A stretch of DNA of 64,000 nucleotides from an uncultured Gemmatimonadales bacterium (GCA_963817435.1 CAWFNY010000003.1:133065-197064); one strand, 5' to 3'; positions 23,506 through 63,174 are shown, counted from the first letter of the stretch. Numbers and translations: made by a program. Notes: generated by a model from the letters alone, not told the origin.

Positions 23506-26178
23506 ATGCCTGCATCTTCTCTCCGTGTGACCCCTCCCCCCGACCGCCTCGCCGCCGCCCTCGCCGACCGCTACCGCATCGAGCGCGAAGTCGGCCACGG
23601 CGGCATGGCCACCGTCTATCTGGCGCAGGATCTCCGGCACGACCGCAAGGTCGCGCTCAAGGTGCTGCGCCCCGAGCTCGCCGCCGTCATCGGCGCCGAA
23701 CGATTCCTCGCGGAGATCAAGACCACGGCGAACCTGCAGCACCCGCACATCCTGGCGCTGTTCGACTCGGGGCAGGTGGACGGCACCGTTTTCTACGTGA
23801 TGCCGTACGTGGAGGGCGAGTCACTCCGCGACCGCCTGACACGGGAGAAGCAGCTCCCCATCGAGGATGCCGTCCGCACGGCGCGGGAAGTCGCCGACGC
23901 GCTCGAGTACGCCCACGAGCATGGGGTCATCCACCGCGACATCAAGCCGGAGAACATCCTCCTCCACGGCGGCCACGCCCTGGTGGCCGACTTCGGGATC
24001 GCGCTCGCCGCGGCCACCACCGCCGGCACCCGCATGACCGAGACCGGCATGTCGCTCGGCACGCCGACCTACATGAGCCCCGAACAGGCCATGGGGGAGC
24101 GGAATCTCGACGCCCGCACCGACATCTACGCGCTCGGCTGCGTCGCGTACGAGATGCTCACCGGTGAACCGCCCTTCAGCGGGCCCACCGCCCAGGCGAT
24201 CGTCGCCAAGGTGATGACGGCCTCACCCGAACCGGTCACGACCCTCCGAAAGACGGTGCCGCCGCACGTTGCGCGCGCCGTGCATCGGGCCATCGAGAAG
24301 CTCCCCGCCGATCGCTTCCCCACCGCGGCGGCCTTCAGTGTCGCCCTCGTTACCGAGGGCGGCGCGGCCACCTGGCAGGGCCAGTCGCCCCCCCTGCCGT
24401 CGCGGGTGGCCGGCGTGTGGCCGCTGGGGCTCGTCGCGGTGCTCGCCACTGTGGCGGCGTTCGCGCTCGGACGGCGCACCGGCCACGCCGGGGCAGGGCC
24501 GGCCGTCTTCGACGCCGCGCTGCCTGACAGTACCCCGATGACCTTCACGGCGACCAACTCGATCCAGACCTATGGAACCTCGTTCAGGAACATGTCCGTT
24601 TCCGCGCGGGGGGACTTCGCGGTCTACGTCGCGCGGCAGGGGGACTCCACACTCCTGTGGTACCGGAGCCTTCGCGACGCCACCGTGCGTCCGATCCTCG
24701 GCAGCCGGGGCGGGACCTCGCCGCGCATCTCGCCGGATGGCTCGCGGGTGGCCTACCTGGTCGGGGACCGAACCCTCGTGCTGCCGATTGGCGGCGGCGA
24801 GCCCCGCCGGCTGCTCGAAGGCAAGAACAGTAGCTCGATGGACTGGTTCTCGAACCAGCAAGTCTTCGTCGCCGACCTCGACGGCAACCGGCTGAACTGG
24901 CTCGATCCTGAAGGCGGGACGGTCCGCACCAAGGAGATTCCCCGCTGCGTATCCGGGCAATGGATCCCGGAGCTCAAGCAGTTGATCTGCTCCTTCAACC
25001 GGCTCGGCACGCTGGTCGAACCGGAGACCGGCCGGCGCTGGAACGTCCTGACCACCCAGGCCGGCGGCGCCCCGGGCCCGGCGCTGGTGGGCTCCGCCTT
25101 CCGTATCATCGAGAAGCGTTACCTGGTCTACCTGGGCGTGGATGGCAGCCTGATGGCGGCCGCCTACGACCCGGCACGCCACCAGGTGCTCCGGTCTGTA
25201 TCCCTGGTCTCCGGCATCCGGCGGGAGGCAATCGGCGACGCGCAATACGACCTGTCCGCCGACGGAACCCTGGTCTACGCGCCGGGGGTGGACGCCACGG
25301 TCGGACACATGGTGAGCCTGAATCGCGGCGGAACTCCGCAGCTCTTGCCGGTGGAATCGGCGGATTTCCAGCGCTATGATCTGAGCCCCGATCGGCGCTG
25401 GCTGGCCGCCGTGGTGCAGGCAAACAACGGCATGGAGCTCAGGATCTACGATCTTCGCAACGGGCAGCGGTACGTCTGGCTGACGCGGGAATCGCTCCGT
25501 CACCCGCTCTGGAGCAGCGATGGCCTTCGACTGCTCATCGGCACGCGGGACACCGCCCAGTGGAAGATCGAACTCGGCGCCCCGAGTTCCGGCGTGCTGC
25601 CGCAGACCCTGGCGGCCTTTGGCACCGACCCCGCCGATGCGCTGCCCACCAATCCCGATCCCGTGGACTGGCACGACGAGCATAGCGCCCTGGCCATGGA
25701 CTGGAACGCATCACTCGTTCTGCGCTTCGACCCTTCCGCCGCCAAGCGTGTCTTCGACACGGTGGCCACCGGCGCACGGTTCCCCTCGCTCTCGCCGAAT
25801 GGCAAGCTGCTTCTCTGGCAGACCACCGATGGCAGCCGCATCGTGGTCTCCGCCTTTCCAGTCCCCGGGCGCCAGTGGCAGATCTCCTCCGATGGCGTCG
25901 AGCCGCTCTGGCTCTCGCCGACCGAGGTGCTGTACCGCGCCGGAGTCTCCTGGTTCGTGGCGCACGTCAATCCGGAGACCGGCGAGCCGGCCGGCGCCCC
26001 GACCTTCTGGGCGCGCGATCCCCGCTTCTCCGACACGTCAGGCTGGTCCAACCGTCCTTCGCACGATGGCGGCATCATCTATGTCGAGGGGCCGGCGCAG
26101 ACGAGCACCGGCTATCTCCGGGTGATTCCGGGATGGGTGGCGCGGCTGAAAGCCGCGGTGGACTCGGCGAATCGGTGA
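23506..26178 (+). CDS. receptor Ser/Thr protein kinase K1 (kinase-TM-TolB/PD40-like propeller), head subfamily A
   Basis: 890 aa; alternative GTG start at 23527. VGHGGMATVY, VALKVL, HRDIKPEN, DFG, YMSPEQ. TM helix VWPLGLVAVLATVAAFALG. SPDG-type blade motifs. Tail VIPGWVARLKAAV. Confidence 0.9.
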   Translation: MPASSLRVTPPPDRLAAALADRYRIEREVGHGGMATVYLAQDLRHDRKVALKVLRPELAAVIGAERFLAEIKTTANLQHPHILALFDSGQVDGTVFYVMPYVEGESLRDRLTREKQLPIEDAVRTAREVADALEYAHEHGVIHRDIKPENILLHGGHALVADFGIALAAATTAGTRMTETGMSLGTPTYMSPEQAMGERNLDARTDIYALGCVAYEMLTGEPPFSGPTAQAIVAKVMTASPEPVTTLRKTVPPHVARAVHRAIEKLPADRFPTAAAFSVALVTEGGAATWQGQSPPLPSRVAGVWPLGLVAVLATVAAFALGRRTGHAGAGPAVFDAALPDSTPMTFTATNSIQTYGTSFRNMSVSARGDFAVYVARQGDSTLLWYRSLRDATVRPILGSRGGTSPRISPDGSRVAYLVGDRTLVLPIGGGEPRRLLEGKNSSSMDWFSNQQVFVADLDGNRLNWLDPEGGTVRTKEIPRCVSGQWIPELKQLICSFNRLGTLVEPETGRRWNVLTTQAGGAPGPALVGSAFRIIEKRYLVYLGVDGSLMAAAYDPARHQVLRSVSLVSGIRREAIGDAQYDLSADGTLVYAPGVDATVGHMVSLNRGGTPQLLPVESADFQRYDLSPDRRWLAAVVQANNGMELRIYDLRNGQRYVWLTRESLRHPLWSSDGLRLLIGTRDTAQWKIELGAPSSGVLPQTLAAFGTDPADALPTNPDPVDWHDEHSALAMDWNASLVLRFDPSAAKRVFDTVATGARFPSLSPNGKLLLWQTTDGSRIVVSAFPVPGRQWQISSDGVEPLWLSPTEVLYRAGVSWFVAHVNPETGEPAGAPTFWARDPRFSDTSGWSNRPSHDGGIIYVEGPAQTSTGYLRVIPGWVARLKAAVDSANR
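23508..23519 (+). promoter_or_regulatory. copy 2 of the 12-mer GCCTGCATCTTC, 7 nt before GTG 23527 of kinase K1
   Basis: Exact 12-mer. Spacing to the GTGACC start context (7 nt) is identical to copy 3. Confidence 0.3.
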
Positions 26179-26230
26179 GCGTACCTTCGGAACGGCTCGC
26201 CGCGCATCTCACGACCCGGCATTTCACTCT

Positions 26231-27025
26231 TCAGCTCTTGTCCTCGCGGGGGAGGACAACGAAGCTCACCGGCAGCCGGGTCAGCTGCCGCACCGCGTGT
26301 TCGCCGTAGCGGGCTGGACTGAAGCGGGCTTCGACAATGCCCTCTCGGACGGCGGTGACGAAAGCCTCATGCGTGGTCGACAAGACCTCGATCGAGGTCT
26401 CCTCCACCAGACCGAGGGTATCGACGATGAACTGGATCGTCACCCGCCCCCCGATGCCGGCGGCCAGCAGCGCTCGGGGATGGATGAAGCGGGGCCGAAC
26501 CACGAGATCCGCTGGCACGAACCGGGCGTCCTCCAGCTCCATCGAATAGAGCGCATTGCCCAGGCTGCCCTCGGGTATCGGCTGGTCCGCAGACCCTGTG
26601 CCCCCTACCACGCCCCAACCCACCCCGCCTTCCACTCCGTGTCCGGTGAAATCCCGCGGGTCGAGGAATCGCTGATTCGGATCCACCGAAGGGATGCCCG
26701 TCGGAACGGTCGACACCGCATCGATCACCTGGAACCCGCGCGGGGGTGGATTGGCGGAGAGCACCATTCCGCTGCCCTCCCCGCCACCGCCCGCGCCACC
26801 GGGACGGCCGGCCTGACGCGGCGCGGACTGGGCCACCGCCGGCGGACCGAGCCGGGGAAGGAAGATGAGCGTGGTATCGTCGACCGCCCGCTGTTCGATC
26901 TTGACGGGGCTGCGCGTGCCTATCACGCAGAGTGTGAGGGCGGCAATATGGAGTAGTGAGGCACCGACGAAGGAAGCAGGCTTGGCCTGCGCTCCAGGGC
27001 GGGAGGCAACCAGGACTTCCAGCAT
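26231..27025 (-). CDS. TonB-family energy transducer (TonB_C domain)
   Basis: The track ORF extends to 27346 and would overlap K2. ATG 27025 gives MLEVLVASRPG..., TM helix ASLLHIAALTLCVIG, a Pro/Gly-rich linker and a C-terminal GGRVTIQFIVDTLGLVEE...ARFSPA. 264 aa. Confidence 0.7.
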   Translation of the reverse strand: MLEVLVASRPGAQAKPASFVGASLLHIAALTLCVIGTRSPVKIEQRAVDDTTLIFLPRLGPPAVAQSAPRQAGRPGGAGGGGEGSGMVLSANPPPRGFQVIDAVSTVPTGIPSVDPNQRFLDPRDFTGHGVEGGVGWGVVGGTGSADQPIPEGSLGNALYSMELEDARFVPADLVVRPRFIHPRALLAAGIGGRVTIQFIVDTLGLVEETSIEVLSTTHEAFVTAVREGIVEARFSPARYGEHAVRQLTRLPVSFVVLPREDKS

Positions 27026-27213
27026 AGGGCCTCCAGGCAGCTGGCGATACCATGGTAGCACCGCGCCGCAGAGGAGGTGATGACGGGAGCCTGAATTCTG
27101 CTTCAGCAGGATCCCGCAGAATCCCTCAGGGATCGCTCGATCGGCTCTTCCGGTGCCTGGCTGCAGCGGTACCACGCCACCGACCAGCCCCCGACTCGCG
27201 ACGACGGGCCAAA

Positions 27214-27225
27214 GCCTGCATCTTC
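27214..27225 (+). promoter_or_regulatory. copy 3 of the 12-mer GCCTGCATCTTC, 7 nt before GTG 27233 of kinase K2
   Basis: Exact 12-mer in the 207-nt divergent region between the TonB-like gene and K2. Confidence 0.3.
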
Positions 27226-27232
27226 TGTCGCT

Positions 27233-30154
27233 GTGACCAACCTCCCCGACCGCCTCGCCGCCGCCCTCGCCGACCGCTACCGCATCGAGCGGCAGCTCGG
27301 GCAGGGCGGCATGGCCACCGTCTACCTCGCGCACGACATCAGGCACGACCGCAAGGTGGCCCTCAAGGTCCTCAGGCCGGAGCTCGCGGCCATGCTAGGC
27401 GTCGAGCGGTTCCTGCAGGAGATCAAGACCACCGCGAGCCTGCAGCATCCGAACATCCTGCCGCTCTTCGACTCCGGCTCGGCCGACGGCTTCCTCTATT
27501 ACGTCATGCCGTACGTGGAGGGAGAAACGCTCCGCGACCGGATGGATCGGGAGCGGCAGATCCCGATCGCGGAGAGTCTCGACATCACCGCGCAGGTGGC
27601 CGCCGCGCTCGCCTACGCGCACGAGCGCGGCGTGGTGCACCGGGACATCAAGCCTGACAACATCATGTTCTCGAGCGGGCAGGCGGTGGTCGCCGACTTC
27701 GGCATCGCGCGCGCCATCGGCGTGGCCGGCGGCGAGCAGCTCACAGTCACCGGCATGGCCATCGGAACTCCCGCGTACATGAGCCCGGAACAGTCGGCGG
27801 GTGAGTCGAGCGTGGACGGCCGTTCCGATCTCTACTCCCTCGCCAGCCTGCTCTACGAGATGCTCGCCGGGGAGCCCCCGTTCACGGGACAGACCGCCGC
27901 CGCCATCATCGCCAAGCGGCTCGGCTCCCCGACGCCCAGGGTCCGGGTAGTGCGGGACGCGGTGCCCGAAGCGGTCGATCGCGCGCTGCAGAAGGCACTG
28001 CAGCGGACGCCGGCGGATCGATTCGCGACCGTCACGCAATTTGTCGAGGCACTCCGCTCAGATCCCGCTCCCAGGCGGACGCAGACCTCGCGGCGCGCAG
28101 CGCTCGCGGTGCTCGGCGTACTGGCACTGGTGACGGCGGGGTGGTGGGCCCTGCGCGGCGACCGCGTCAGGGGAGACCTCGATCCGGACGTCATCGCCGT
28201 GATGCCGTTCCGCGTCGGCGGCGACCCCGCCATCGCGTACCTGCGGGAGTCGATGCTCGACCTCCTGAACGCCCGCCTCCCCGGCGGAACCGGCCCGCGA
28301 ATCGTCGAGCCCCGCACCGCCCTGAGTGCCTGGCGGCGCGCCGTCGGCAACGAACGGGAGGACCTGTCCGAGGAGGATTCCCGCCGCCTTGCCGCCCGGC
28401 TCGGCGCCGGACGGGTGCTCCTCGGCAGCGCCATCGCGACGCCGACCGAGCTCACCCTCACGGGCTCGCTGTTCCGGGTGTCCGACGGGAACGAGCTGGC
28501 GAACGGATCGGTCTCGGGGATGCCCGACAGCGTAGCGGTGCTGGTCAACCGGCTGGTGGCCCGGCTCCTCAGCCAGGAGGCCGGGGAGTCGCGCGAGCGG
28601 CTCGACGGCCTCGCGTCCACCTCCCTCGAGGCGCTGCAGGATTATCTCGCGGCGCGGAAGGCCTATCGCCGCGGTGACTATTTTGCCGCGCTGGATCTGT
28701 ACGGACGCGCCTTTGCCCTCGATTCCAACTTCGCGCAGGCCGCCTTCGGCCTGGTCATCACCAACCCGCTGGTCGGCACGGTGTTCAACACCTCCGGCTT
28801 CAGGGCGATCCCGGCGCTCTGGCGGCTCCGGGACCGCCTGAGCCCGCGCGACCTCGCGCTACTCCGCGGCATGACCTTCGTCGGCCCCAACTATCCCCAC
28901 CCGTCCACCTACGCGGAGGTGCTCGCGCAGGCGGAGCGCGCGGCGGGCGACGCCCCGGACAGTCCGGAGCAGTGGTTCGTGCTCGGCAGCGGGCTCGACA
29001 ACTATGGCGCCGCCGCCAGCGTCCCGGACTGGCCCGCCAGGGCAGCCGATGCGCTGGACCGCGCCATTGCGCTCGACTCATCGTTCACACCGGCATTGCG
29101 GCAACGGCTCTACCTGGCGGTCGTCGTCCGGGACCGTGATGCGATCCGGAGAATGGCGGGCCTGCTCGAGACCAGCGCCGGCCCCGGGGACTATTCCGTG
29201 CTCTGGGCGGCCGCGGTCGCGACGGGGGACAGTGCCGAGGCGCTCCGCTGGCGGAACCGAATCGAAGCGTCGGCGCACGCGGACTTCATGCAGCGGCTGG
29301 TGGTCATTCCCCTGGTCAGCGTGCAGGACGCACTGCCCCTGGCCGACGCCCGCTGGGCCAACGCGACGCTGCGGCGGGAAGGCGCCACGGCGCAGGAGCG
29401 GAGCTCGGCACAACTCGGTGAGTATGCCGTCGGCATGGCGGAAGGCCGGCTGCTCGATTTTAGACAGGGATTCATGGGCGGCAGCGATTGGGACTTTGCC
29501 GGCGTGGTGCGGCAGGCGGTCGTCGAGGCCCCCTACCGCGCTCAGGCGCTGAAGATGATCCCGCCATTGGACCATGCCGGGTGGCTGCCGCTTCAGGACT
29601 GCTTCGCCGAGCTGTTGCGGGTCACCGCGGGCGACACCAGCGGGACCCGTCAGGCCATCCGGCGGCTGCGCGCATTCGCCGCGCTCGATCCGCCGCCGAT
29701 TCCGCAGGAGGAATGGGACCCGCTCGACTTTCGCGTCTGCCCGCTTCTGCTCGAGACCCTGCTGGAGGGAGGGCGCGATCGCAGCGCCACCTCCCGGCTG
29801 AACGCCCTCGACTCTCTCATGCGCGGGGGACCCCGCTGGCTCACGCTGGGGCCGCCCGCCGCCCCGGTCGTCGAAGCCAACTGGACCATCGCCCGGTTGC
29901 GCGAGGCGCAGGGGAATATTCCGGCCGCCCTCGCGGCCATCCGGCGCCGGGAGAGCAACTGGTATCCCGCCTATCTCTGGACGCTGCCGGCGTTCCTGCG
30001 GCAGGAGGGACGCCTCGCGGCGCTGGCAGGCGACACCGCGGGGGCGCAGTGGGCCTATCAGCGGTACCTGACGTTGCGCACCGATCCCGATCCGGCATTT
30101 GTTCCACAGCGCGATTCCGTGATCGCCGCACTCTCGGCGCTCGGGTCGCGCTGA
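27233..30154 (+). CDS. receptor Ser/Thr protein kinase K2 (kinase-TM-periplasmic module-TPR-like helical repeats), head subfamily F
   Basis: 973 aa with a GTG start. LGQGGMATVY, VALKVL, HRDIKPDN, DFG, YMSPEQ. TM helix AALAVLGVLALVTAGWWAL. Then VIAVMPFRVGGDP... and a long helical Ala/Leu/Arg-rich region with no SPDG blades. Confidence 0.85.
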   Translation: MTNLPDRLAAALADRYRIERQLGQGGMATVYLAHDIRHDRKVALKVLRPELAAMLGVERFLQEIKTTASLQHPNILPLFDSGSADGFLYYVMPYVEGETLRDRMDRERQIPIAESLDITAQVAAALAYAHERGVVHRDIKPDNIMFSSGQAVVADFGIARAIGVAGGEQLTVTGMAIGTPAYMSPEQSAGESSVDGRSDLYSLASLLYEMLAGEPPFTGQTAAAIIAKRLGSPTPRVRVVRDAVPEAVDRALQKALQRTPADRFATVTQFVEALRSDPAPRRTQTSRRAALAVLGVLALVTAGWWALRGDRVRGDLDPDVIAVMPFRVGGDPAIAYLRESMLDLLNARLPGGTGPRIVEPRTALSAWRRAVGNEREDLSEEDSRRLAARLGAGRVLLGSAIATPTELTLTGSLFRVSDGNELANGSVSGMPDSVAVLVNRLVARLLSQEAGESRERLDGLASTSLEALQDYLAARKAYRRGDYFAALDLYGRAFALDSNFAQAAFGLVITNPLVGTVFNTSGFRAIPALWRLRDRLSPRDLALLRGMTFVGPNYPHPSTYAEVLAQAERAAGDAPDSPEQWFVLGSGLDNYGAAASVPDWPARAADALDRAIALDSSFTPALRQRLYLAVVVRDRDAIRRMAGLLETSAGPGDYSVLWAAAVATGDSAEALRWRNRIEASAHADFMQRLVVIPLVSVQDALPLADARWANATLRREGATAQERSSAQLGEYAVGMAEGRLLDFRQGFMGGSDWDFAGVVRQAVVEAPYRAQALKMIPPLDHAGWLPLQDCFAELLRVTAGDTSGTRQAIRRLRAFAALDPPPIPQEEWDPLDFRVCPLLLETLLEGGRDRSATSRLNALDSLMRGGPRWLTLGPPAAPVVEANWTIARLREAQGNIPAALAAIRRRESNWYPAYLWTLPAFLRQEGRLAALAGDTAGAQWAYQRYLTLRTDPDPAFVPQRDSVIAALSALGSR

Positions 30155-30266
30155 TGGCTTCATCGAGTCCGAGCCGGGAAGGCTCGCGATGGCTGAGGTG
30201 ATCGAACGCCTCGCGCTTCCCGATCACACCGTATTCAATGGTCGCTCGCGCGACGGAGTACATCAG

Positions 30267-32435
30267 ATGAGAATGGCGCTGCTGATCGTCCTGCTGGGAA
30301 CGTTCGCCTGCAGCGGCGGGGGGAGTGGCGGGGCGGACGCCGCCAGGCTCCGCGAGCGCGCCCACGCCGTCACCATCACCCGCGACGACTGGGGCATCGC
30401 GCACGTCCACGGGAAGACCGACGCGGATGCGGTCTTCGGTATGGTCTACGCCCAGGCCGAGGACGACTTCAACCGCGTCGAGACCAACTACCTGAACTCC
30501 CTCGGCCGCCTCGCCGAAGCGGAGGGCGAATCGGCAGTGGTGCAGGATCTGCGGCAGAAGCTGTTTATGAATCCGGACACCCTGAAGGCGCAGTACGCTA
30601 CGAGTCCCGACTGGCTCAAACGGCTGCTGGACGCCTGGGCCGACGGGCTCAACTACTACCTGCTCACTCACCCCGGGGTGCATCCCCGCGCCATCACCCA
30701 TTTCGAGCCGTGGATGCCACTCTCGTACAGCGAGGGCAGCATCGGCGGAGACATCGAGAGCATCTCCATCGATCAGTTAGGCGCCTTCTACGGCCATGGA
30801 CCCAAGACCGTCGCGGTGCGGGCGCCCGCGCTGCCTGCGGAGCCTGGAGGGTCGAACGGCTTCGCCATCGCGCCGGCCAACACGTCGGCACATCACGCGC
30901 TGCTGCTCATCAATCCGCATACCTCGTTCTTCTTCCGCTCCGAGCTGCAGATGTCGAGCGACGAGGGACTCGACGCCTACGGCGCAGTCACCTGGGGGCA
31001 GTTCTTCATCTACCAGGGATTCAACCCCCGGGTAGGGTGGATGCACACCTCGAGCGGCGTCGACGCCATCGATGAGTGGGCCGAGACCATCGTGCGGAAG
31101 GGCGACAGCCTCTTCTACAAGGAAGGCGGCGCAGCGAAGCCGGTGACCGTCGAGAAGATCACCGTCCCGTTCCGGAGCGACAGCGGACCGCGACAGACGG
31201 TGTTCACCATCTACCGCACCGGACACGGGCCGGTCGTGCGTGAGGCCGACGGCAAGTGGATCACCATCCGGCTCATGCAGGAGCCGGTGAAGGCGCTCAC
31301 CGAGTCGTACACCCGCACCAAGGCGAACAACTACCAGGAGTTCCGGAGGACGGTCGAGCTGCAGTCCAACTCCTCCAACAACACCATCTACGCCGACGCC
31401 GACGGCAACATCGCCTACTTCCACGCCAGCTTCATCCCCAGGCGCGACCCGCGCTTCGACTGGAGTCACCCGGTGGACGGCAGTGATCCGGCGACGGAAT
31501 GGCAGGGGCTCACCCCCGTGGACCAGACACCCACGCTGTTCAACCCCGCCAACGGCTGGATCCAGAACACCAACAACTCGCCCTGGACCGCGGCCGGCCC
31601 CTACAGCCCGAAGCAGCGGGACTACCCGCGATATGTCGATGTCTACGAGGACAACCCGCGCGGCGTGCACGCGGTCCGGGTGCTGAGCGCCAGGAAGGAT
31701 TTCACGCTGCAGTCATTGATCGACGCGGCGTTCGACAGCTATCAGCCCGCCTTTGCGCTGCTGCTCCCGCCGCTCCTCCGGGACTACGACCGCCTCCCCG
31801 CACACGATCCGCTCAAGGCGAAGCTGGCCGGCCCCATCGAGGCGCTCCGGGGCTGGGACTATCGCTGGTCCGCGGCCTCGGTACCGACCTCCGTCGCGGT
31901 GTACTGGGGCGACATGCTCTGGCGCGATGTCGCGCAGAGCGCGGACGACGAGGATCTCTCCGTGTACGACTACATGACCCGCCGCGCCACGCCGGCACAG
32001 CGGCTGACTGCGCTCGCGGAAGCCACCGACAAGCTCACGACGGACTTCGGCACCTGGCAGACGGCCTGGGGCGAGATCAACCGCTTCCAGCGGCTCACCG
32101 ATGACATCGTCCATCCCTTCACCGATTCGGGACCCAGCATCCCGGTGCCGTTCACCTCGGCACGGTGGGGTTCGCTCGCCTCGTTCGGCGCCCGGTCGTA
32201 CAACGGCAGCAAGAAGATCTACGGCACCTACGGCAACAGCTTTGTGGCGGTGGTGGAGTTCGGCGACTCGGTACGCGCCCGCGCGGTGACCGCCGGTGGC
32301 GAGAGCGGCGACCCGAAGTCGCCGCACTTCAACGACCAGGCGGCCCGCTACGCCTCGGGGAATCTGCGGGAGGTCTACTTCTATCCCGGTCAGCTCGCGG
32401 CCCACACGGAACGGGCATACCATCCCGGGGAGTAG
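30267..32435 (+). CDS. penicillin/AHL acylase family Ntn-hydrolase (S45-like), lipoprotein
   Basis: The track ORF starts at 30189. ATG 30267 gives the lipobox MRMALLIVLLGTFAC. ITRDDWGIAHVHG... alpha-chain start. PGGSNGFAIAP carries the Ser-Asn autoprocessing/nucleophile site. About 720 aa. Confidence 0.8.
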   Translation: MRMALLIVLLGTFACSGGGSGGADAARLRERAHAVTITRDDWGIAHVHGKTDADAVFGMVYAQAEDDFNRVETNYLNSLGRLAEAEGESAVVQDLRQKLFMNPDTLKAQYATSPDWLKRLLDAWADGLNYYLLTHPGVHPRAITHFEPWMPLSYSEGSIGGDIESISIDQLGAFYGHGPKTVAVRAPALPAEPGGSNGFAIAPANTSAHHALLLINPHTSFFFRSELQMSSDEGLDAYGAVTWGQFFIYQGFNPRVGWMHTSSGVDAIDEWAETIVRKGDSLFYKEGGAAKPVTVEKITVPFRSDSGPRQTVFTIYRTGHGPVVREADGKWITIRLMQEPVKALTESYTRTKANNYQEFRRTVELQSNSSNNTIYADADGNIAYFHASFIPRRDPRFDWSHPVDGSDPATEWQGLTPVDQTPTLFNPANGWIQNTNNSPWTAAGPYSPKQRDYPRYVDVYEDNPRGVHAVRVLSARKDFTLQSLIDAAFDSYQPAFALLLPPLLRDYDRLPAHDPLKAKLAGPIEALRGWDYRWSAASVPTSVAVYWGDMLWRDVAQSADDEDLSVYDYMTRRATPAQRLTALAEATDKLTTDFGTWQTAWGEINRFQRLTDDIVHPFTDSGPSIPVPFTSARWGSLASFGARSYNGSKKIYGTYGNSFVAVVEFGDSVRARAVTAGGESGDPKSPHFNDQAARYASGNLREVYFYPGQLAAHTERAYHPGE

Positions 32436-55187: not shown

Positions 55188-57814
55188 GCGAAATCCCCAT
55201 GAGGCTGAGCGCCGCCCTCGCCGACCGCTATCTGCTCGAGCGGGAGCTCGGCCAGGGCGGCATGGCCACCGTCTACCTCGCCGAAGACCTCAAGCATCAC
55301 CGCAAGGTCGCGGTGAAGGTGCTCCGGCCGGATCTCGCCGCAACCATGGGGGCCGAGCGGTTCGAGCGGGAGATCCAGGTCGCCGCCCGGCTGCAGCACC
55401 CCCACATCCTCGGTGTGCTCGACTCCGGGGAGTCCGGCGGCTTCTTCTACTACGTGATGCCCTACGTCGAGGGCGAGACGCTGCGCGACCGGATCACCCG
55501 GAGCGGCGAACTGCCGGTCAGCGACGCGCTCCGGCTGCTGGGCGAGATCACCGAGGCCCTCGCCGTGGCGCACCGGGCCGGGGTGGTGCACCGCGACATC
55601 AAGCCGGAGAACATCCTGCTGTCGGGCCGCCATGCGCTGGTCATGGACTTCGGCGTGGCCAAGGCGGTCACCGAGGCGAGCGGCCGGCAGCAGCTCACCA
55701 CCGCCGGCGTCGCGTTAGGCACGCCGGCCTACATGGCGCCGGAGCAGGCCACCGCCGATCCGCAGCTTGATCACCGAGTGGACATCTACGCGTTAGGCGT
55801 GCTGGCCTACGAGATGCTCACAGGCCATCCGCCCTTCCACGGACTCACGCCGCAGCAGACCCTCGCGGCCCAGGTCACCCAGGCGCCGGTGCCGGTCACC
55901 CAGCGGCGGCCCGGGATCGCGCCGGTGCTCGACGCGCTCATCATGCGCTGCCTGGCCAAACGGCCAGCGGACCGGTTCCAGACTGCGGACGAGCTGGTCG
56001 CGGCCCTAGAGCCGCTGGCCACGCCGAGCGGCGGGATGACGCCGGCGCATACCATGCCGGTCAGTGCGCTGTCCGCGCCGCGCGGCGTGCCCCGATGGGC
56101 GCGCGGCGCCGTTGCGGGAGCCGTGGTGCTCGCGGTCGGCGCGGTGGCGTTCGTGCTCCTCAATCGTCCGCCGGCCACCGCCGCACTGGTGCAGCCGCTG
56201 CAGCTCACCCGGAGCGCAGGGGTGCAGGAGTCGCCCTTCATCACCAGCGATGGCAAAGGCGTCGCCTACCGCATCCTCGGCCCAGGTGATACGGCCAATC
56301 GCGTCGAATTGCGGCGGGGCAGTGATGGCAGCGCGGTCCCGCTCGCCGAGGCTGCCGGGCCACGCGGCTGGTCGCCCGACGGCGACAAGCTGCTCATCGC
56401 GACTCGGCGTGGACTGGAGACCGTCCCCGCGCTCGGCGGATCGAGCACCCTGCTCGTCGCCGGCGCCAGGTTCGGGACCTGGGCACCTGACGGGCAGCGC
56501 CTGGTCTATGTGCGCGGGGACTCGCTCCTGCTTCGCGGTAGCGATGGAACCGACAAGCTGCTCGCGCACACCCTCGACCCGCACTCGCTCGCCTGGTCGC
56601 CCGACGGCAGATGGATCGCCTACGTCTCCGACAACTCCCGGTACCTCAACGACTGGAACATCGCCGTCTCTGCGCTCTGGCTGGTGCCGTCCGCCGGCGG
56701 CGCCGCGGTGCAGCTCACCACCAAGGAAGCGCTGAACCTGAGTCCCGCCTGGGCCCCGGACAGCCGCCGGCTCCTCTTCGTCTCGGGACGGAGCGGGACC
56801 CGCGACATCTACCAGCTCAATCTCGGCTCCGATGGCAAGCCGCGGGGCGATCCGCTGCAGATCACCGTCGGGCTGAATGTCTCGCAGATCACGCTCGCAC
56901 CCGATGGCGAGCACCTGGCCTATTCGGTCGTGACCAATCGCAGCAACATCTGGCGGGTGAAAGAGCAGGCCGCCGGGCCGCTGTCGAGCCGCGGGGCAGA
57001 ACTGGTCACTTCCGACCAGGAGAGCATCGAGAGCTTCTGGATCTCCCGGGACGGGCAGTGGCTGGTGTTCGACTCCGACCGGTCGGGGACGCAGCAGATC
57101 TTTCGCCGCCGCCTGGCGGGCGGTGAGGTGCAGCAGGTCACCCATGGAACTTCTCCAGCCTTCTCGGTGTCGCTCTCGCCCGACGGCAGGCAGGTTGCCT
57201 ACCATTCCATCGTCAATGGCCAGCGGCGGGTCTTCGTCACCTCGAGCGAAGGGGGCGAGCAGCCGGTGCAGGTGTCGCCCGGCACTTTCCAGGATGAGCG
57301 CAACCCGCAGTGGGCTCCCGACGGCAGACGACTCTCGTGGCAGACGATCGCGAACGGGGTGCTGCGGGCCTGGGTGGTCACGCGGAAAGGCACGGGATGG
57401 AGCGCACCGCGGGAAGTGGCTCGCCCGGGCATGACGATCTCCTCCACCTGGGGTGATACCGCGCTCCTGGTGGCGTTCGACACCGTGAACCGTCGCGGCG
57501 TCCTGGTCAGTGTCGACAGCGGGAGCGGCCCGGCGCGGGTTCTGCTCCAGGCCACGGAGGCGACCCCGAAGGGGCAGGCGCAGCCGGTCTCCTCGCCCGA
57601 CTTCCGCACCTTCTTTCTCTCCAATCGCCAGGGGATCTGGGCCCTGCCGATCAAGGGCGGCACGCTCCGGGAGCTGGTGCGGTTCGACGATCCGCTCCAC
57701 CCCCATGCGAGCAATGCCCGCAGCGTCTCGGGGTATGGCGGGTATGTGTACTTCACCCTGCAGAACCCGCAGAGCAACATCTGGGTCGCCCGGGTGACTG
57801 GCCTCAAGCGATGA
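55184..57814 (+). CDS. receptor Ser/Thr protein kinase K11 (kinase-TM-TolB-like propeller), head subfamily E
   Basis: 876 aa. ATG overlaps the K10 TGA. The head is close to K6 (VAVKVL, LLSGRHALVMDFGVAKAV, YMAPEQ). The propeller carries WSPDG.../D(I/V)Y blades like ORF 41996. Tail NIWVARVTGLKR. Confidence 0.9.
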   Translation: MSEIPMRLSAALADRYLLERELGQGGMATVYLAEDLKHHRKVAVKVLRPDLAATMGAERFEREIQVAARLQHPHILGVLDSGESGGFFYYVMPYVEGETLRDRITRSGELPVSDALRLLGEITEALAVAHRAGVVHRDIKPENILLSGRHALVMDFGVAKAVTEASGRQQLTTAGVALGTPAYMAPEQATADPQLDHRVDIYALGVLAYEMLTGHPPFHGLTPQQTLAAQVTQAPVPVTQRRPGIAPVLDALIMRCLAKRPADRFQTADELVAALEPLATPSGGMTPAHTMPVSALSAPRGVPRWARGAVAGAVVLAVGAVAFVLLNRPPATAALVQPLQLTRSAGVQESPFITSDGKGVAYRILGPGDTANRVELRRGSDGSAVPLAEAAGPRGWSPDGDKLLIATRRGLETVPALGGSSTLLVAGARFGTWAPDGQRLVYVRGDSLLLRGSDGTDKLLAHTLDPHSLAWSPDGRWIAYVSDNSRYLNDWNIAVSALWLVPSAGGAAVQLTTKEALNLSPAWAPDSRRLLFVSGRSGTRDIYQLNLGSDGKPRGDPLQITVGLNVSQITLAPDGEHLAYSVVTNRSNIWRVKEQAAGPLSSRGAELVTSDQESIESFWISRDGQWLVFDSDRSGTQQIFRRRLAGGEVQQVTHGTSPAFSVSLSPDGRQVAYHSIVNGQRRVFVTSSEGGEQPVQVSPGTFQDERNPQWAPDGRRLSWQTIANGVLRAWVVTRKGTGWSAPREVARPGMTISSTWGDTALLVAFDTVNRRGVLVSVDSGSGPARVLLQATEATPKGQAQPVSSPDFRTFFLSNRQGIWALPIKGGTLRELVRFDDPLHPHASNARSVSGYGGYVYFTLQNPQSNIWVARVTGLKR

Positions 57815-60474
57815 GCGACGCCGCCGCACGTCTTGCTGCCGCCCTCGCCGACCGCTACCGCCTCGAGCGGGAGCTGGGCCATGGCGGGATGGCGACGGTC
57901 TACCTCGCCGAAGACCTCAAGCATCACCGCAAGGTCGCGATCAAGGTGCTGCGGCCCGAACTCGCCGCCGTCGTCGGGGCCGAACGGTTTCTGAGTGAGA
58001 TCAAGACCACGGCGAACCTGCAGCACCCGCACATTCTCCCGCTCTTCGACTCGGGGGCCGCGGATTCGTTCCTCTTCTATGTCATGCCCTTCGTCGCAGG
58101 GGAATCGCTTCGCGACCGGCTCCGCCGCGAAAAGCAGCTGCCGATCGGCGACGCGATCCGGATCGCCACCGAGATCGCCGGTGCACTGGACTACGCGCAC
58201 CGGCACGGCGTCATCCACCGCGACATCAAGCCCGAGAATATCCTGCTGCATGACGGCCGGGCGCTGGTCGCCGATTTCGGCATTGCGCTGGCCGCGAGCA
58301 CTGCCGACGGGACGCGCCTCACGGAGACCGGCCTCTCGCTCGGGACTCCGGCGTACATGTCCCCCGAACAGGCGATGGGTGAGCGGGAGATCACCGCGCG
58401 CAGCGACATCTACGCCCTCGGCTGCGTGACCTACGAAATGCTCACCGGAGAGCCGCCCTTCAGCGGTCCGACGGCGCAGGCCATCGTCGCCAGGGTCATG
58501 ACGACACCCCCGGCATCACCCAGCGTGAGCCGCGCGCGGGTACCGCCGGCGGTCGATGCGGCAGTGCTGGCCGCCCTGGAGAAACTGCCAGCCGATCGCT
58601 TCGCGAGTGCAGCGGAGTTCGCGGCGGCGCTCTCCGGCGAACGCCCGATCGCAAGCCGGCCGGCCGGCGCGCTGTCCGCGGCGGGCTCGGGCAGCAGGTC
58701 ATGGGCCCGACTCGCAGCCCTGGCGGGTATCGCCCTCACCGGCATGACGGTCGCCTACCTGGGCGGGAGAAGGTACGGCCGCACGGAATCGCCGACGCTG
58801 CCACCGGCGCGTCTCGCGCTCATCGCGCCGGCGCTGGGCGCGCCAAGCACGTCGACCGCGGGCCGGCAGGTCGCGATCACCCCGGCCGGCGACGCCATCC
58901 TATACGTCGGCACCCGTGACGACACCACCGCGCTCTTCCTACAGCGCCTCGACCTGCCCGGACCCGTCGAGATCGCCGGCTCCGCCACGCTCCGGGATCC
59001 CATCATCACGCCAGACGGCCGCTCCGTCATCGGCCTGTCCCCCACGGGCGGAGTGCGGCTCCCGCTCGAGGGCGGTTCGCCCCGCGCCATCCCGCTGCCG
59101 TCGAGCACCTTCATCGGCACCTGGGCCCCGGATGGCTCCTACTGGTTCACGAATGTGGACATCAGTGGACTGATGCGGCTCACCCCAACCGACTCGGTGG
59201 TTCCGATTGGGGCGACTCCGGAGAAGCTGGCGGGGCTCCGCGTTCAACAGGTGCTGGACGACGGGCACACCGCCCTGGTGGTGCACGCGCCATCGACGAC
59301 TGCGAGCGGGCCCGGCCTGGTGCTCGACCTGCGGAGCGGTGAGCTCTCGCCGCTACTGGACGGGCCGGTGCTGGAGATGCGCATCGTGCGCGGTGAACTG
59401 CTCTGTGCTATGCCCGACGGATCGATCACCGCGGCTCCCTTCGACGTCCGATCGCATCGGCTTCTCGGACCGGCCGTGCAGGTCGCCACCGGAGTGGCAC
59501 TCACCGGCAATGGACTCGCTCACTTCGCCGTGGCCAGGAACGGCACCCTGGTCTACGTCCAGGAGGGTCCCCCCTCGCTGGTCCTGGTCGACCGGGCCGG
59601 CTCCGAGACCGTTGCCCTCGCCGATCAGGAGTTTCTGCACTCGCCGCGCTTCTCGCCCGACGGGCGCCGGGTGTCGTTCGACATCACCACGGCCGACGGG
59701 CGCGACGTCTGGATCTACTCGCTGGACCAGCACGCCCGCTCCCGCACGACCTTCGTCAAGGATGGACACGACGCCACCTGGACCCCTGACGGGCGATTCA
59801 TCACCTACACCCACCTGCTGGGCAGCCTCGTCGGCGTCTATCGCACCCGGCCGGGCAGCACGGCACCGGCCGAGTCGCTGTTCGCCGCGCCGCATCTCGA
59901 CTACACGGGAACGTGGCTCGGTGACGGCAGCGCACTGATCACCGACGGGAGCGACCTCCACGGGCACTCGGGCGGCGACATTGCGCGGATCGCCGATTCG
60001 GGACGGGGCCCGCTCGAGCCGCTGGTCGCGAGCCCGTTCCTCGAGCGCTTCGCCGCGCCGTCACCCGACGGGCGCCTGCTGGCGTTCGCCTCCAATCAGA
60101 GCGGGCGGGAGGAGGTCTACGTCCAGCACCTCTCGGGAGAGGGGGAGCCGGTGCAGGTGTCGCAGAATGGGGGGAGCGAGGCGGTCTGGGCACCTGATGG
60201 CCGGGAGCTGTACTATCGTGGCGCTCACAACGGCCAGGTCGTCCTCGAAGCGGCCACACTCAGGTCGGCACCGGACCTGGCCGTCGTCTCCCGTCGCGCG
60301 CTCTTCCCCATCCCCGAGATCGTCGGGACCGGTCCGCATGCGAACTACGACGTCTCACCTGATGGTCGCACCTTCGCGATGGTTCGACGCAGTTGGAGCA
60401 GGCACATCGTGGTGATCCAGGACCTGCCCGGACTCCTGCGCCACCTCCGCGCCTCCGGTGGGGCCGCCCCATGA
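57811..60474 (+). CDS. receptor Ser/Thr protein kinase K12 (kinase-TM-propeller), head subfamily D
   Basis: 887 aa. ATG overlaps the K11 TGA. All kinase motifs present. Tail IVVIQDLPGLLRHLR. Confidence 0.9.
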   Translation: MSDAAARLAAALADRYRLERELGHGGMATVYLAEDLKHHRKVAIKVLRPELAAVVGAERFLSEIKTTANLQHPHILPLFDSGAADSFLFYVMPFVAGESLRDRLRREKQLPIGDAIRIATEIAGALDYAHRHGVIHRDIKPENILLHDGRALVADFGIALAASTADGTRLTETGLSLGTPAYMSPEQAMGEREITARSDIYALGCVTYEMLTGEPPFSGPTAQAIVARVMTTPPASPSVSRARVPPAVDAAVLAALEKLPADRFASAAEFAAALSGERPIASRPAGALSAAGSGSRSWARLAALAGIALTGMTVAYLGGRRYGRTESPTLPPARLALIAPALGAPSTSTAGRQVAITPAGDAILYVGTRDDTTALFLQRLDLPGPVEIAGSATLRDPIITPDGRSVIGLSPTGGVRLPLEGGSPRAIPLPSSTFIGTWAPDGSYWFTNVDISGLMRLTPTDSVVPIGATPEKLAGLRVQQVLDDGHTALVVHAPSTTASGPGLVLDLRSGELSPLLDGPVLEMRIVRGELLCAMPDGSITAAPFDVRSHRLLGPAVQVATGVALTGNGLAHFAVARNGTLVYVQEGPPSLVLVDRAGSETVALADQEFLHSPRFSPDGRRVSFDITTADGRDVWIYSLDQHARSRTTFVKDGHDATWTPDGRFITYTHLLGSLVGVYRTRPGSTAPAESLFAAPHLDYTGTWLGDGSALITDGSDLHGHSGGDIARIADSGRGPLEPLVASPFLERFAAPSPDGRLLAFASNQSGREEVYVQHLSGEGEPVQVSQNGGSEAVWAPDGRELYYRGAHNGQVVLEAATLRSAPDLAVVSRRALFPIPEIVGTGPHANYDVSPDGRTFAMVRRSWSRHIVVIQDLPGLLRHLRASGGAAP

Positions 60475-60480
60475 TCGGCG

Positions 60481-63174
60481 GTGTCCAAGATGGCTGAGAT
60501 GACCACCAGGCTTGCCGACGCCCTCGCCGACCGCTACCGCATCGAGCGGGAGCTGGGCCAGGGCGGCATGGCCACCGTCTACCTCGCGCACGACATGCGG
60601 CACGACCGCAAGGTCGCGCTCAAGGTGCTCCGCCCCGAGCTGAGTGCCATCCTCGGTGCGGAGCGATTCCTGGCGGAGATCAAGACCACTGCGAACCTGC
60701 AGCATCCCCACATTCTCTCGCTGTTCGACTCCGGGGAAGCCGCCGGCCTCGTGTTCTACGTCATGCCGTACGTCGAGGGGGAGAGTCTCCGGGACCGGCT
60801 CAACCGCGAACGGCAGCTGCCGGTGGACGAGGCGGTGCGGATCGCGCGCGAGGTCGCCGACGCGCTCGACTACGCGCACCACCAGGGCGTGATCCACCGC
60901 GACATCAAGCCGGAGAACATCCTCCTCCATGGTGGCCACGCCCAGGTGGCCGACTTCGGGATCGCGCTGGCAGCGTCCCGCTCCGACAGCGGGTCGCGGA
61001 TGACCGAGACCGGCATGTCGCTCGGCACACCGCACTACATGAGCCCCGAGCAGGCGATGGGGGAACGGGAGATCACCGCGAAGAGCGATGTCTACGCACT
61101 CGGCTGCGTGCTGTACGAGATGCTGGCCGGCGAGCCGCCGTTCACCGGGCCGAGCGCCCAGGCCATCATCGCGCGGGTCATGACCGAGGAGCCGAGAAGC
61201 CTGACGCTGCAGCGGAAGACGATTCCGCCCCACGTCGAGGCGGCGGTGGTCACGGCGCTGGCGAAGCTCCCCGCAGACCGGTTTGCCAGCGCGGCGGCGT
61301 TCGGGGAGGCACTGGCTCATCCCACCGCCTCGACCCTCGCCGCCACGAGCGCGAGGCTGCGAGAGGCCGCTGGACGGGCCGCCACTCCCCGTGCACGCCT
61401 GAGCGTGCTGTTGCCGTGGGCCGTCGCGGTCATCGCCATCGCCGTCGCCGTCGCCGGGTGGGGCTGGTTAGGCAGGCCACCCCGGCCGGCGCCGAGCTGG
61501 CAGTACATCACCTTCGGCGACGCCCCGAAGCCCTCCGTGAGCGCGCCCTCCCTGGCGCTGTCGCCCGATGGGGCGAGCCTGGTCATCAAGGATGACATCC
61601 AGAACGGACGGCTCTGGATCAAGCGCCGCGGCGAGCTGACGCCGGTTCCCATTCCGGGCACCGAACGAGGCTTCTATCCGGCCTTCTCTCCCGACGGGCA
61701 GTGGATCTCGTTCATCGCCGACTTTCGCCTCAAGAAGATCCGGCCCGGTGAGGGCGGAGCGATCACGCTGGCCGATTCCGCCGCGTTGCCGTTCGGCGGA
61801 GCGGCCTGGCTGGACGACGGCTCCATCGTCTATGTCGGACCGACGCTCAGCGAGCTGTCCAGAGTGAGCGGGACGGGCGGAGCGCCCACGAGCGTGCTGA
61901 AGAGTCCGCAGCTCGCGGGCCTGGGGCTTGCAATGCCGACCCCGCTCCCCGGCGCCCGCGGTGTGCTGTTCACGGTGTGCACGTCCGGATGTGTGACGGT
62001 GAGCGTGCACGTCCTCGACCTGCACACCGGTCAGGAGCATCTCCTGCTCAACGACGTGCTGACCGCATGGTATCTGCCGACCGGACAGCTCTTCTTCCTG
62101 CGGCGCGACGGTGCGGGGCTCGTGGCCCCATTCGACCTCAAGCGGCTGCAGGTCACCGGGGCGGGGATACCGGTGCTCGAACGGGTCCGGACCTTTGTCG
62201 GCTTGCCGTTCCTGACCTGGTCCCCCTCGGGAACCCTGATCTTCATGCAGGGGGATGCGGGAGCCACCGACGCGGAAATGGTGCGGGTCAACCGGGAAGG
62301 CGCTGTCGCCCCGATCGACACGGCCTGGCACGGTGGGTTCAACTCGGCGGCGGTCTCCCCCGATGGGCGCCGCCTGGCAATCGGCGTGGGACTCGCCAGC
62401 GGCACCCTCGGCATCTGGATCAAGCAGCTCGACCGCGGACCATTCACCCGCCTCACCTTCGGTGGCCAGGATCGGCGGCCGGCGTGGTCGCCGGACGGGA
62501 GGGTCGTGGCGTTCATCCGGGATTCGCTGAACTCGAGCAGCGTCTACGCGCGAGAGGCCGACGGCAGCACTTCGGATCGGCTCCTCGCCCGGCTCGACCG
62601 CCCGGTACAGGAAGTGACCTGGAGCCCCGACGGCCGCTGGCTCGTGCTCAGGACCGACAACGGCGCCGCCGGCCTCGGCGACCTTGTCGGTGTCCGAACC
62701 AGTGGGGACACGACGCCGGTCCCACTGGTGGCGAGCAGCTTCACCGAACTGGAACCCGCCGTCTCTCCCGACAGCCGCTGGCTGGCATATGCCTCGAACG
62801 AGTCCGGGGCGAACGAGATCTACGTCCGCCCATTCCCGGGCACCACGGGCGCACGATGGCAGGTGTCGAACGGCGGGGGGGAGCAGCCGCGCTGGTCCCC
62901 GGACGGACGGGAGCTGTACTTCATCGACCGCACCGCGCATCTCGTCGCCGCCGACGTGCGCACGGCGCCGACGTTCGAGGTCAGCGAACTCAGGACGCTG
63001 TTCGACGCCTCCGCCTACGTGAACCCCGGCTTCCACCAGAGCTACGACGTGCTGCCAGGCGGCAAGGGGTTTCTATTCATGCGGACCAGGCTGGCCACTC
63101 AGGGCCGAGGCGGAGTGCCGATCGTCCAGGTCGACAACTGGTTTGCTGATCTCAAGGCACGGACCTCACACTAG
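60481..63174 (+). CDS. receptor Ser/Thr protein kinase K13 (kinase-TM-propeller), head subfamily A
   Basis: 897 aa from GTG 60481; alternative ATG starts at 60490 and 60499. The head shares RHDRKVALKVL, FLAEIKTT, AREVADAL and LLHGGHA with K1. Tail IVQVDNWFADLKARTSH. Confidence 0.9.
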   Translation: MSKMAEMTTRLADALADRYRIERELGQGGMATVYLAHDMRHDRKVALKVLRPELSAILGAERFLAEIKTTANLQHPHILSLFDSGEAAGLVFYVMPYVEGESLRDRLNRERQLPVDEAVRIAREVADALDYAHHQGVIHRDIKPENILLHGGHAQVADFGIALAASRSDSGSRMTETGMSLGTPHYMSPEQAMGEREITAKSDVYALGCVLYEMLAGEPPFTGPSAQAIIARVMTEEPRSLTLQRKTIPPHVEAAVVTALAKLPADRFASAAAFGEALAHPTASTLAATSARLREAAGRAATPRARLSVLLPWAVAVIAIAVAVAGWGWLGRPPRPAPSWQYITFGDAPKPSVSAPSLALSPDGASLVIKDDIQNGRLWIKRRGELTPVPIPGTERGFYPAFSPDGQWISFIADFRLKKIRPGEGGAITLADSAALPFGGAAWLDDGSIVYVGPTLSELSRVSGTGGAPTSVLKSPQLAGLGLAMPTPLPGARGVLFTVCTSGCVTVSVHVLDLHTGQEHLLLNDVLTAWYLPTGQLFFLRRDGAGLVAPFDLKRLQVTGAGIPVLERVRTFVGLPFLTWSPSGTLIFMQGDAGATDAEMVRVNREGAVAPIDTAWHGGFNSAAVSPDGRRLAIGVGLASGTLGIWIKQLDRGPFTRLTFGGQDRRPAWSPDGRVVAFIRDSLNSSSVYAREADGSTSDRLLARLDRPVQEVTWSPDGRWLVLRTDNGAAGLGDLVGVRTSGDTTPVPLVASSFTELEPAVSPDSRWLAYASNESGANEIYVRPFPGTTGARWQVSNGGGEQPRWSPDGRELYFIDRTAHLVAADVRTAPTFEVSELRTLFDASAYVNPGFHQSYDVLPGGKGFLFMRTRLATQGRGGVPIVQVDNWFADLKARTSH

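Follow-up and report, generated by a model that had tools for sequence, protein, structure and literature searches.

Gene Content of the Kinase Array

The stretch of DNA analyzed here (64,000 nt at full length, hereafter the window) belongs to an uncultured, soil-type Gemmatimonadales bacterium (GCA_963817435.1, CAWFNY010000003.1:133065-197064), has a G+C content of 65–72%, and carries a cluster of receptor-type Ser/Thr kinase genes between positions 23506 and 63174. An initial annotation, made from the sequence alone, had placed 13 kinase open reading frames (ORFs) on the + strand of this segment. Translation from each of the given starts confirmed all of them as uninterrupted frames, which encode proteins of 847–973 aa except for K6 (469 aa), and a motif scan of the rest of the window revealed no additional intact kinase genes. 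The same annotation described the kinases as filling about 40 kb. They are indeed clustered, but they make up 33.6 of the 39.7 kb and are interrupted by other genes, namely a gene for a protein with a TonB C-terminal domain (TonB_C), a penicillin amidase gene, a PD40 lipoprotein gene, the relic of a kinase gene, and an ORF of 78 aa.

The array opens with K1 (23506–26178, 890 aa; Pkinase E = 2.8e-49), which has a divergent PD40 tail with a predicted double propeller and a transmembrane helix at residues 301–319. The tail of K2 (27233–30154, 973 aa; Pkinase E = 4.5e-47) is not a propeller. Predicted PD40 double-propeller tails are again found in K3 (32517–35198, 893 aa), K4 (35209–37908, 899 aa), and K5 (37909–40593, 894 aa), of which the last was modelled at full length and follows K4 with a gap of 0 nt. 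K6 (40590–41999; Pkinase E = 4.4e-49) has a short periplasmic module and is followed by the gene for LP, a stand-alone lipoprotein (MKHAVVVAGIGLLAAC) that is predicted to form a PD40 double propeller (41996–43954, +; PD40 E = 3.5e-43, six stretches). The remaining kinases, all with PD40 tails, are K7 (43977–46613, 878 aa), K8 (46610–49270, 886 aa), K9 (49993–52647, 884 aa, with a TTG start), K10 (52644–55187, 847 aa), K11 (55184–57814, 876 aa), K12 (57811–60474, 887 aa), and K13 (60481–63174, 897 aa), which is the final gene of the array and is followed by a multicopper oxidase gene. K10 combines a very divergent tail with a head that shares 89% identity with the head of its neighbor K9. K11 belongs to a head subtype shared with K6 (VAVK, APE). 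Between K8 and K9 lie the N-lobe relic of a decayed 14th kinase copy (49267–49534, +) and the conserved 78-aa ORF (49760–49996, +), the stop of which overlaps the K9 start.

From K3 to K13, the spacings between genes are 10, 0, −4, −4, 22, −4 (six times), and 6 nt when LP, the relic, and the small ORF are counted. This close spacing suggests a long transcription unit with translational coupling. K3–K13 are thus probably co-transcribed and translationally coupled, the spacing itself being the evidence for an operon.

Kinase Heads and Membrane Topology

The Pkinase domain was found in all 13 proteins (E = 4.5e-47 to 8.9e-52; 157–176 bits compared with a Pfam cut-off of 31.7). The motifs GxGGMATV, VA[ILV]K, HRDIKP[ED]N, DFG, and [SA]PE are present in every head according to both a regular expression search and the alignment, in line with the earlier claim that no copy has lost a catalytic motif. 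A pair of activation-loop threonines is also conserved across the aligned heads. An AlphaFold2 model of K5 built from 93 sequences has a mean predicted local distance difference test score (pLDDT) of 86.9, and its head matches PknB of Mycobacterium tuberculosis (5u94) with a target-normalised TM-score of 0.86 and 38% sequence identity; 1o6y is likewise a PknB structural match for this head. The heads are RD-type Hanks kinases with a predicted PknB-like fold.

Each of the 13 proteins has one hydrophobic helix after the head, as had been described, at about residues 289–326. The number of Lys and Arg residues is higher before the helix than after it in nine of the 13, equal in K4, and lower in K1, K9, and K12. 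From this charge count and by analogy with other receptor kinases, the kinase head is predicted to face the cytoplasm.

Predicted Double Propellers in 11 Tails

PD40 scores are above the Pfam cut-off in 11 of the 13 tails (K1, K3–K5, and K7–K13), the weakest being that of K1 with 29.1 bits. These are the 11 copies for which PD40/TolB-type tails had been proposed, and both parts of the layout, kinase and propeller, are thus detectable by hidden Markov models. Because a fold search with full-length K5 gave only kinase matches, the K5 tail was modelled separately. The resulting AlphaFold2 model (pLDDT 89.1, predicted TM-score 0.86) is all-beta and aligns end to end with tandem double-propeller proteins, including LRP6 (E1E2/E3E4), PWP2, Tricorn, Aip1, and 2ymu. 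In addition, the tail sequence profile matches TolB in two separate stretches (E = 1.5e-36), and precomputed Pfam matches to Tricorn_N and Tricorn_2nd are available for orthologues. Given the tail model, the TolB profile match, and the Tricorn matches, the sensor appears to be a PD40 double propeller rather than the NHL propeller of PknD; no NHL family is among the Pfam matches at E ≤ 0.01 in the 13 kinases. The ectodomain of the 11 copies is, according to the model, composed of two tandem TolB-type PD40 propellers.

Two local features of the tails may be recorded here. A CxNNC motif (C494 and C498; K5 residues 494–498, window positions about 39388–39402) is near-invariant among the aligned K5 orthologues. 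This motif is part of the first propeller of the periplasmic domain, where it may form a disulfide or a metal site. K13 carries CTSGC at the corresponding place, and K3 and K4 are without the motif. Moreover, a similar terminal strand and amphipathic helix is seen in most of the propeller tails inspected, for example LTVVLNWFTEV in K5 (window positions 40530–40590) and LVVVENFVQEL in K8. This shared C-terminal ending covers K1, K3–K5, K7–K9, K12, and K13 (K1 and K12 loosely) in tails that are at most 40% identical overall, and in the K5 model it corresponds to a closing strand and helix at residues 875–893.

The K2 Tail, the K6 Module, and LP

The K2 tail (about 650 aa) is conserved in 255 homologues, and full-length K2 orthologues are 50–82% identical. 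It had been described as carrying TPR-like helical repeats. At least one TPR motif is supported, as the tail profile matches consensus TPR proteins through a single motif at profile positions 86–120, but no Pfam family matches this tail in either our own scan or the precomputed data.

For K6, the short periplasmic module noted previously was found to comprise about 145 aa after the helix. It has no Pfam family, and the best match in a PDB sequence search has an E-value of 1.1. The idea that this module resembles the alpha/beta domain like the N-terminal domain of TolB, which is common in TPR-type regulators, was supported neither by this PDB search nor by a BLASTP comparison with the first part of the K2 tail. 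The ATG of the LP gene overlaps the K6 stop in the sequence ATGA. LP scores 221 bits with the TolB model TIGR02800, which is below the cut-off of 343. The LP propeller is closest to the K11 tail (28% identity), just as the K6 head is closest to the K11 head (82% identity). K6 and LP may represent a two-polypeptide version of the receptor. Likewise, the related locus L002 encodes a 473-aa kinase, behind which a PD40 protein of 419 aa is encoded as a separate gene, although this arrangement may alternatively be explained by a frameshift.

Kinase Arrays in Other Gemmatimonadales Genomes

More than 8,000 database relatives were found for K5, including full-length orthologues with up to 87% identity, and all named matches belong to Gemmatimonadales or Gemmatimonadota. 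When one genome per species was scanned, 80 loci were obtained, of which 79 are titled Gemmatimonadota. Among the 33 loci of at least 20 kb, two or more kinases are present in 25, three or more in 16, and five or more in nine. Examples include a run of five kinases in GCA_016709265.1, eight kinases within 22.6 kb in locus L016, and at least 17 kinases over about 90 kb of contig CAWCVB010000002.1. Of 98 pairs of consecutive kinase genes on the same strand, 40 are tightly joined, with the second start no further than about 40 nt from the first stop. The modal distance from a stop to the next HRD motif is 401 nt across the related loci, which equals that of the window. The initial annotation had regarded such genes as normally single or scattered. 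This view does not hold for this lineage, as Gemmatimonadales genomes commonly carry co-directional kinase arrays whose genes are joined by the stop/start junction seen here, and the present array is not out of the ordinary for this order. A conserved gene order was ruled out, since the order within arrays differs between genomes. Genes similar to K1 and K13 are adjacent in both L005 and L008.

Evolution of Heads and Tails

Pairwise identity within the array is 53–91% for the heads and only 12–40% for the tails. Nine tails (K1, K2, K3, K4, K5, K7, K8, K9, and K13) have orthologues elsewhere with 54–86% identity, including L005_7318 for K1 (65%), L019_2605 for K3 (75%), and L030_13092 for K7 (86%). 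The ratio of nonsynonymous to synonymous substitution rates (dN/dS) of the tails is 0.15–0.26 between orthologues. The presence of tail orthologues in other genomes, together with these low ratios, indicates that the paralogues predate the divergence of the genomes compared. As judged from the sequence comparisons, the tails are old and stable orthogroups that appear to be under purifying selection. Thus, the array was aptly described as a diversified repertoire in that it is a cluster of distinct tails, but not if a recent or rapid diversification is meant.

The heads have a different pattern. For most copies, the closest foreign head is located on an unrelated tail, whereas the tail orthologue has a more distant head. 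When K7 is compared with L030_13092, for example, the tails are 86% identical and the heads 83%, and the synonymous divergence (dS) of the heads exceeds that of the tails (0.82 and 0.57, respectively). The same is true for K2 and its tail orthologue (head dS 0.71, tail dS 0.54). The K3 and K5 heads have a dS of 0.35, and a tract shared by these two genes (K3, 32811–33090; K5, 38197–38476) has eight mismatches in 279 nt where 34.6 are expected (P about 8e-10, for a region picked post hoc). In a GENECONV-style test with 2,000 permutations, three pairs of neighboring genes (K9-K10, K1-K2, and K11-K12) stood out at P = 0.0005; for K9/K10, this involves a 76-nt run with 47 concordant polymorphic sites. 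Across 181 kinases, when only pairs of paralogues with unrelated tails are considered, heads of at least 88% identity are seen in 12.9% of adjacent pairs, 5.2% of same-genome pairs, and 0.2% of between-genome pairs.

In our reading of these patterns, head segments of about 800 nt swap between neighbors by recurrent gene conversion or unequal crossing-over, which would homogenise the heads locally. The same recombination would lead to gain, loss, and reshuffling of tail units and copies. If so, similar heads do not imply a recent expansion of whole genes, because the tails are old orthogroups and head similarity would reflect local homogenisation.

The decayed 14th copy could be one product of such head-driven turnover. 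This relic directly follows K8 with the same 4-nt junction that is found between intact genes. Its N-terminus is fused to the region past the VAIK lysine, so that the G-loop and the lysine are deleted, and a frameshift follows. Searches with K1–K13 (tblastn, E down to 3e-20) matched it to about kinase residues 40–116 in two reading frames. Neither a catalytic loop nor a Pfam match was found in the relic.

A Conserved 78-aa ORF Upstream of Receptor Kinase Genes

The 78-aa ORF, which overlaps the K9 start by 4 nt, has homologues in 71 clusters (76–79 aa), and all named sources are Gemmatimonadota. It has no Pfam family. The sequences follow the pattern MGYRRF...DPFELSxEELQxLL...PF and have 18 invariant residues. 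A copy is located directly upstream of a receptor kinase gene in four further loci (L001:9755–9991, L085:6001–6234, L086:6001–6237, and L087:1582–1818), which represent three or more assemblies. A further copy is found 210 nt downstream of a kinase in L003 (12913–13149), and in L084 a copy with 62% identity has no kinase nearby. The encoded protein may be a partner or a substrate of the kinases.

A metallo-beta-lactamase-fold gene follows the kinase linked to this ORF in two of these loci (L086:8760–9656 and L087:4341–5237), with a 4-nt overlap. A precomputed Pfam match assigns its product to Anti-Pycsar_Apyc1, a family of cyclic-nucleotide phosphodiesterases.

Proposed Function and Alternative Explanations

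On balance, we favor the interpretation that the array is an old set of receptor Ser/Thr kinases with distinct inputs and a shared output that is maintained by recombination, and consider it somewhat more probable than all other explanations together. Under this interpretation, each tail would bind its own periplasmic or envelope ligand, which is likeliest to be a peptide or a protein, as is the case for the propellers of TolB, S9 peptidases, and Tricorn. Ligand binding would shift the oligomeric state, and the heads would trans-autophosphorylate on their activation-loop threonines and then phosphorylate a common set of cytoplasmic targets, such that many inputs feed one output module. Ligand binding, activation driven by dimerisation, and shared substrates are inferred from the biology of PknB and PknD and from the conservation pattern described above.

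Several points weigh against this interpretation. The window encodes no FHA partner, PP2C phosphatase, ligand, or substrate gene, and consensus scans for promoters and terminators gave no signal above chance. All comparison loci were chosen by their similarity to K5 and are therefore a biased sample. Regarding recombination, the K3/K5 region was chosen post hoc and only 2,000 permutations were used in the conversion tests. Moreover, the K3 head is 85–90% identical to the heads of K5 orthologues elsewhere, which is about equal to its identity with K5 itself. Strong within-genome concerted evolution of K3 and K5 was considered, and this result weakens it; what is left for exchange is the 279-nt tract, which is local, and the fact that near-identical heads are overrepresented among adjacent genes. 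Purifying selection on the kinase fold explains much of the head similarity. Finally, the propellers might serve as anchors or scaffolds instead of sensors.

The last point can be developed into an explanation of its own, in which the propeller tails dock the kinases to particular envelope complexes, as TolB docks with Pal, and the kinases are localised, largely constitutive, and monitor or regulate envelope assembly. The TolB propeller and TIGR02800 are the nearest in sequence to the tail profile (E = 1.5e-36 for TolB), a stand-alone propeller lipoprotein is encoded within the array, and a TonB_C gene as well as many secreted peptidase genes are nearby. However, all TolB model scores are under the curated cut-off (86–221 compared with 343 bits), no N-terminal domain of TolB was found, and no Tol-Pal genes are adjacent. 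The existence of at least 13 distinct and individually conserved tail types also suits distinct ligands better than a single envelope machine, and we consider such a docking role rather unlikely. Alternatively, the array may act as one combinatorial sensor, in which the receptors would be co-translated from a single long mRNA and their heads have been converted to near-identity to allow cross-pairing and cross-phosphorylation, so that mixed dimers or clusters integrate the inputs; the 78-aa protein could then be a shared adaptor or the first substrate. We regard this possibility as doubtful. If it were true, head homogenisation would have been selected for instead of being a mere by-product of tandem repeats, and the lineage-specific kinase expansions described in other phyla from Pkinase-only trees would in part be artifacts of concerted evolution.

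A role in anti-phage defense or conflict was also considered, in which the kinases would be of the PD-T4-6 or MADS Mad6 type and would sense infection and phosphorylate cell or phage targets. The PADLOC models for PD-T4-6 and mad6 match K2, K5, K6, and K11 with E-values down to 1e-94, and the NCBIfam model antiphage_MADS6 gives matches of 171–187 bits. However, the latter scores are far under the cut-off of 460, and the PADLOC matches extend only over residues of about 5–300, which make up the generic kinase domain, for which reason this explanation is rated low. Furthermore, the sensors are predicted periplasmic propellers, no defense genes are adjacent in the window, and the orthologues are stable across genomes and appear to be under purifying selection, unlike typical defense islands. 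We consider a defense function very improbable. Even less credible is the suggestion that the array is an assembly artifact, or that it consists of duplicates that are redundant and decaying and lack functions of their own. In a short-read metagenome, chimeric joins could arise from the heads, which reach 88% nucleotide identity and share exact runs of as much as 77 nt, and one copy is clearly decayed. Nevertheless, a collapsed repeat is unlikely at these levels of identity, given that the tails are mutually unrelated at the DNA level. The 13 frames stay open for about 2.6 kb each and retain complete catalytic motifs, each copy has orthologues in independent assemblies, and other genomes carry equivalent arrays on long contigs, some of them 0.8–5.4 Mb in length. 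The dN/dS values of 0.09–0.26 further argue against decaying duplicates.

Comparison With Known Receptor Kinase Families

Myxobacteria and Planctomycetota are known to have expanded families of membrane Ser/Thr kinases whose periplasmic tails are of the WD40 or TPR type; these families include tandem duplicates and species-specific Pkinase clades that have been ascribed to "duplication and/or recombination" (PMC11032199). Examples are "Ca. Uabimicrobium amorphum" and Gemmataceae, with Perez et al. (2008) cited therein (PMC11032199). PD40 is among the commonest domains tethered to prokaryotic kinases, and Pkinase-PD40 is among the commonest architectures (PMC2877116). The present array resembles the families in Myxobacteria and Planctomycetota in combining a Pkinase domain predicted to be cytoplasmic with one membrane helix and, in the periplasm, a tail of the beta-propeller or TPR type. 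It also resembles them in its many paralogues, which number dozens to hundreds in those families, some of them adjacent; here 13 intact genes and one relic are found in 40 kb. It differs in its phylum (Gemmatimonadota), in the predicted PD40/TolB double propellers in place of WD40 arrays, in the joining of up to 11 genes by overlapping stop and start codons, and in that the tails were found to be old orthogroups with heads that appear locally homogenised. The layout of kinase, membrane helix, and repeat tail and the many tandem paralogues, including arrays of five to eight copies in related genomes, place the locus within the expanded receptor-kinase class.

It follows that the type of system is already known, as expanded receptor Ser/Thr kinases with propeller or TPR tails have been reported in other phyla. 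The earlier description of the array as a clustered, diversified repertoire of kinases with a membrane helix and propeller stands, but the concept itself had been described elsewhere (PMC11032199, PMC2877116). New features are the phylum, the predicted PD40 double-propeller sensor, and the operon-like packing of up to 11 receptor kinases, as well as the combination of stable tails with apparently exchanging heads and the conserved 78-aa ORF upstream of receptor kinases. In the literature searched, which does not cover all journals, no paper on kinase arrays of Gemmatimonadota was found, nor any function assigned to arrays of this kind, as the initial annotation had stated.

The kinases had been called PknD-like. 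PknD of M. tuberculosis (Rv0931c) has one six-bladed NHL propeller. The order of parts is indeed the same (Hanks kinase, one membrane helix, and extracytoplasmic beta-propeller), and activation is presumably by dimerisation in both. However, PknD is a single gene rather than an array, two tandem PD40 propellers are predicted here in place of NHL, and the NCBIfam model for PknD (NF009651) gives only 143–163 bits compared with a cut-off of 839, with matches limited to the kinase domain. Similarly, these proteins share with the PASTA kinases PknB and Stk1 the RD kinase type and the activation-loop threonine pair, and PknB is the closest solved structure for the head. The PASTA kinase model NF033483 matches only the kinase domain (300–313 bits; cut-off 450), and no PASTA domains are among the Pfam matches in the 13 kinases. 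The tails have the same PD40 blade signature as the propellers of TolB, S9 peptidases, and the Tricorn N-terminal region, and Tricorn (1k32) also has tandem propellers. Unlike these proteins, the receptors described here have no TolB N-terminal or peptidase domain, and their propellers are fused to a kinase via the membrane helix. With the TolB model TIGR02800, K5 and K11 score 86 and 144 bits, respectively, and the matches are limited to the propeller part of the model. In summary of these searches, no curated NCBIfam equivalog was reached, the scores for PknB-PASTA, PknD, TolB, and Mad6 all being below their cut-offs.

"Candidatus Solibacter usitatus" has a large and old family of Ser/Thr kinase paralogues that is under purifying selection and mostly has less than 50% full-length identity (PMC3174227). 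This family in a soil bacterium is similar to the set described here in being large, old, and purifying-selected, but neither operon-like arrays nor head/tail discordance are reported for it (PMC3174227).

In plants, clusters of receptor-like kinases combine variable ectodomains with conserved kinases and evolve by unequal crossing-over and gene conversion. The comparison with these clusters drawn in the initial annotation is appropriate with respect to tandem receptor kinases that have variable ectodomains and conserved kinase domains. The order of parts is opposite, however, the ectodomain folds are unrelated, and plant clusters are not polycistronic. Moreover, plant ectodomains are often under diversifying selection, whereas the tails in the present array appear to be under purifying selection.

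Gemmatimonadota are abundant soil bacteria whose signaling has hardly been studied by experiment. Our results suggest that at least one order of this phylum packages sensing as long, operon-like arrays of receptor kinases, in which stable sensors would sit on an interchangeable kinase module. The analysis yields at least 11 candidate ligand-binding ectodomains with orthologues and a candidate small partner protein. It also provides a warning on method, as trees built from kinase domains only can take gene conversion for recent expansion.

Other Genes In and Near the Array

Between K1 and K2, an ORF on the opposite strand (26231–27346, −) encodes a protein with a TonB C-terminal domain (PF03544, E = 1e-5). 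The longest ORF extends into the K2 start, for which reason translation probably begins at an internal position. Between K2 and K3 lies a gene of the penicillin amidase family (Ntn-hydrolase; 30189–32435, +; PF01804, E = 9e-125), which is co-directional with the array and separated by 34 nt from K2 and by 81 nt from K3. This family includes the acyl-homoserine-lactone acylases. A conserved partnership of this gene with K2 was ruled out, as no such gene follows the K2 orthologue in L032. A scan of the whole window against Rfam found no RNA families.

Upstream of the array, positions 325–14734 (+) encode apparently secreted hydrolases, including a Met-zincin (DUF4953/DUF5117), a beta-lactamase-family protein, an M1 aminopeptidase with HEAT repeats, and a pair of M16 peptidases. 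In locus L003, genes of the S8, S9, and beta-lactamase families are likewise found near the kinases. A large membrane protein with PAS, GGDEF, and EAL domains (6611–9361, +), which points to cyclic-di-GMP turnover, is encoded 14 kb upstream of the array. Finally, an ORF of 98 aa (23182–23478, +) with no Pfam or NCBIfam match lies 27 nt upstream of K1 and overlaps the stop of a BNR/sortilin-like gene by 4 nt. Its product ends in ...VVGAIAGG, and this C-terminal Gly-Gly presumably points to a sulfur-carrier fold like that of ThiS or MoaD.

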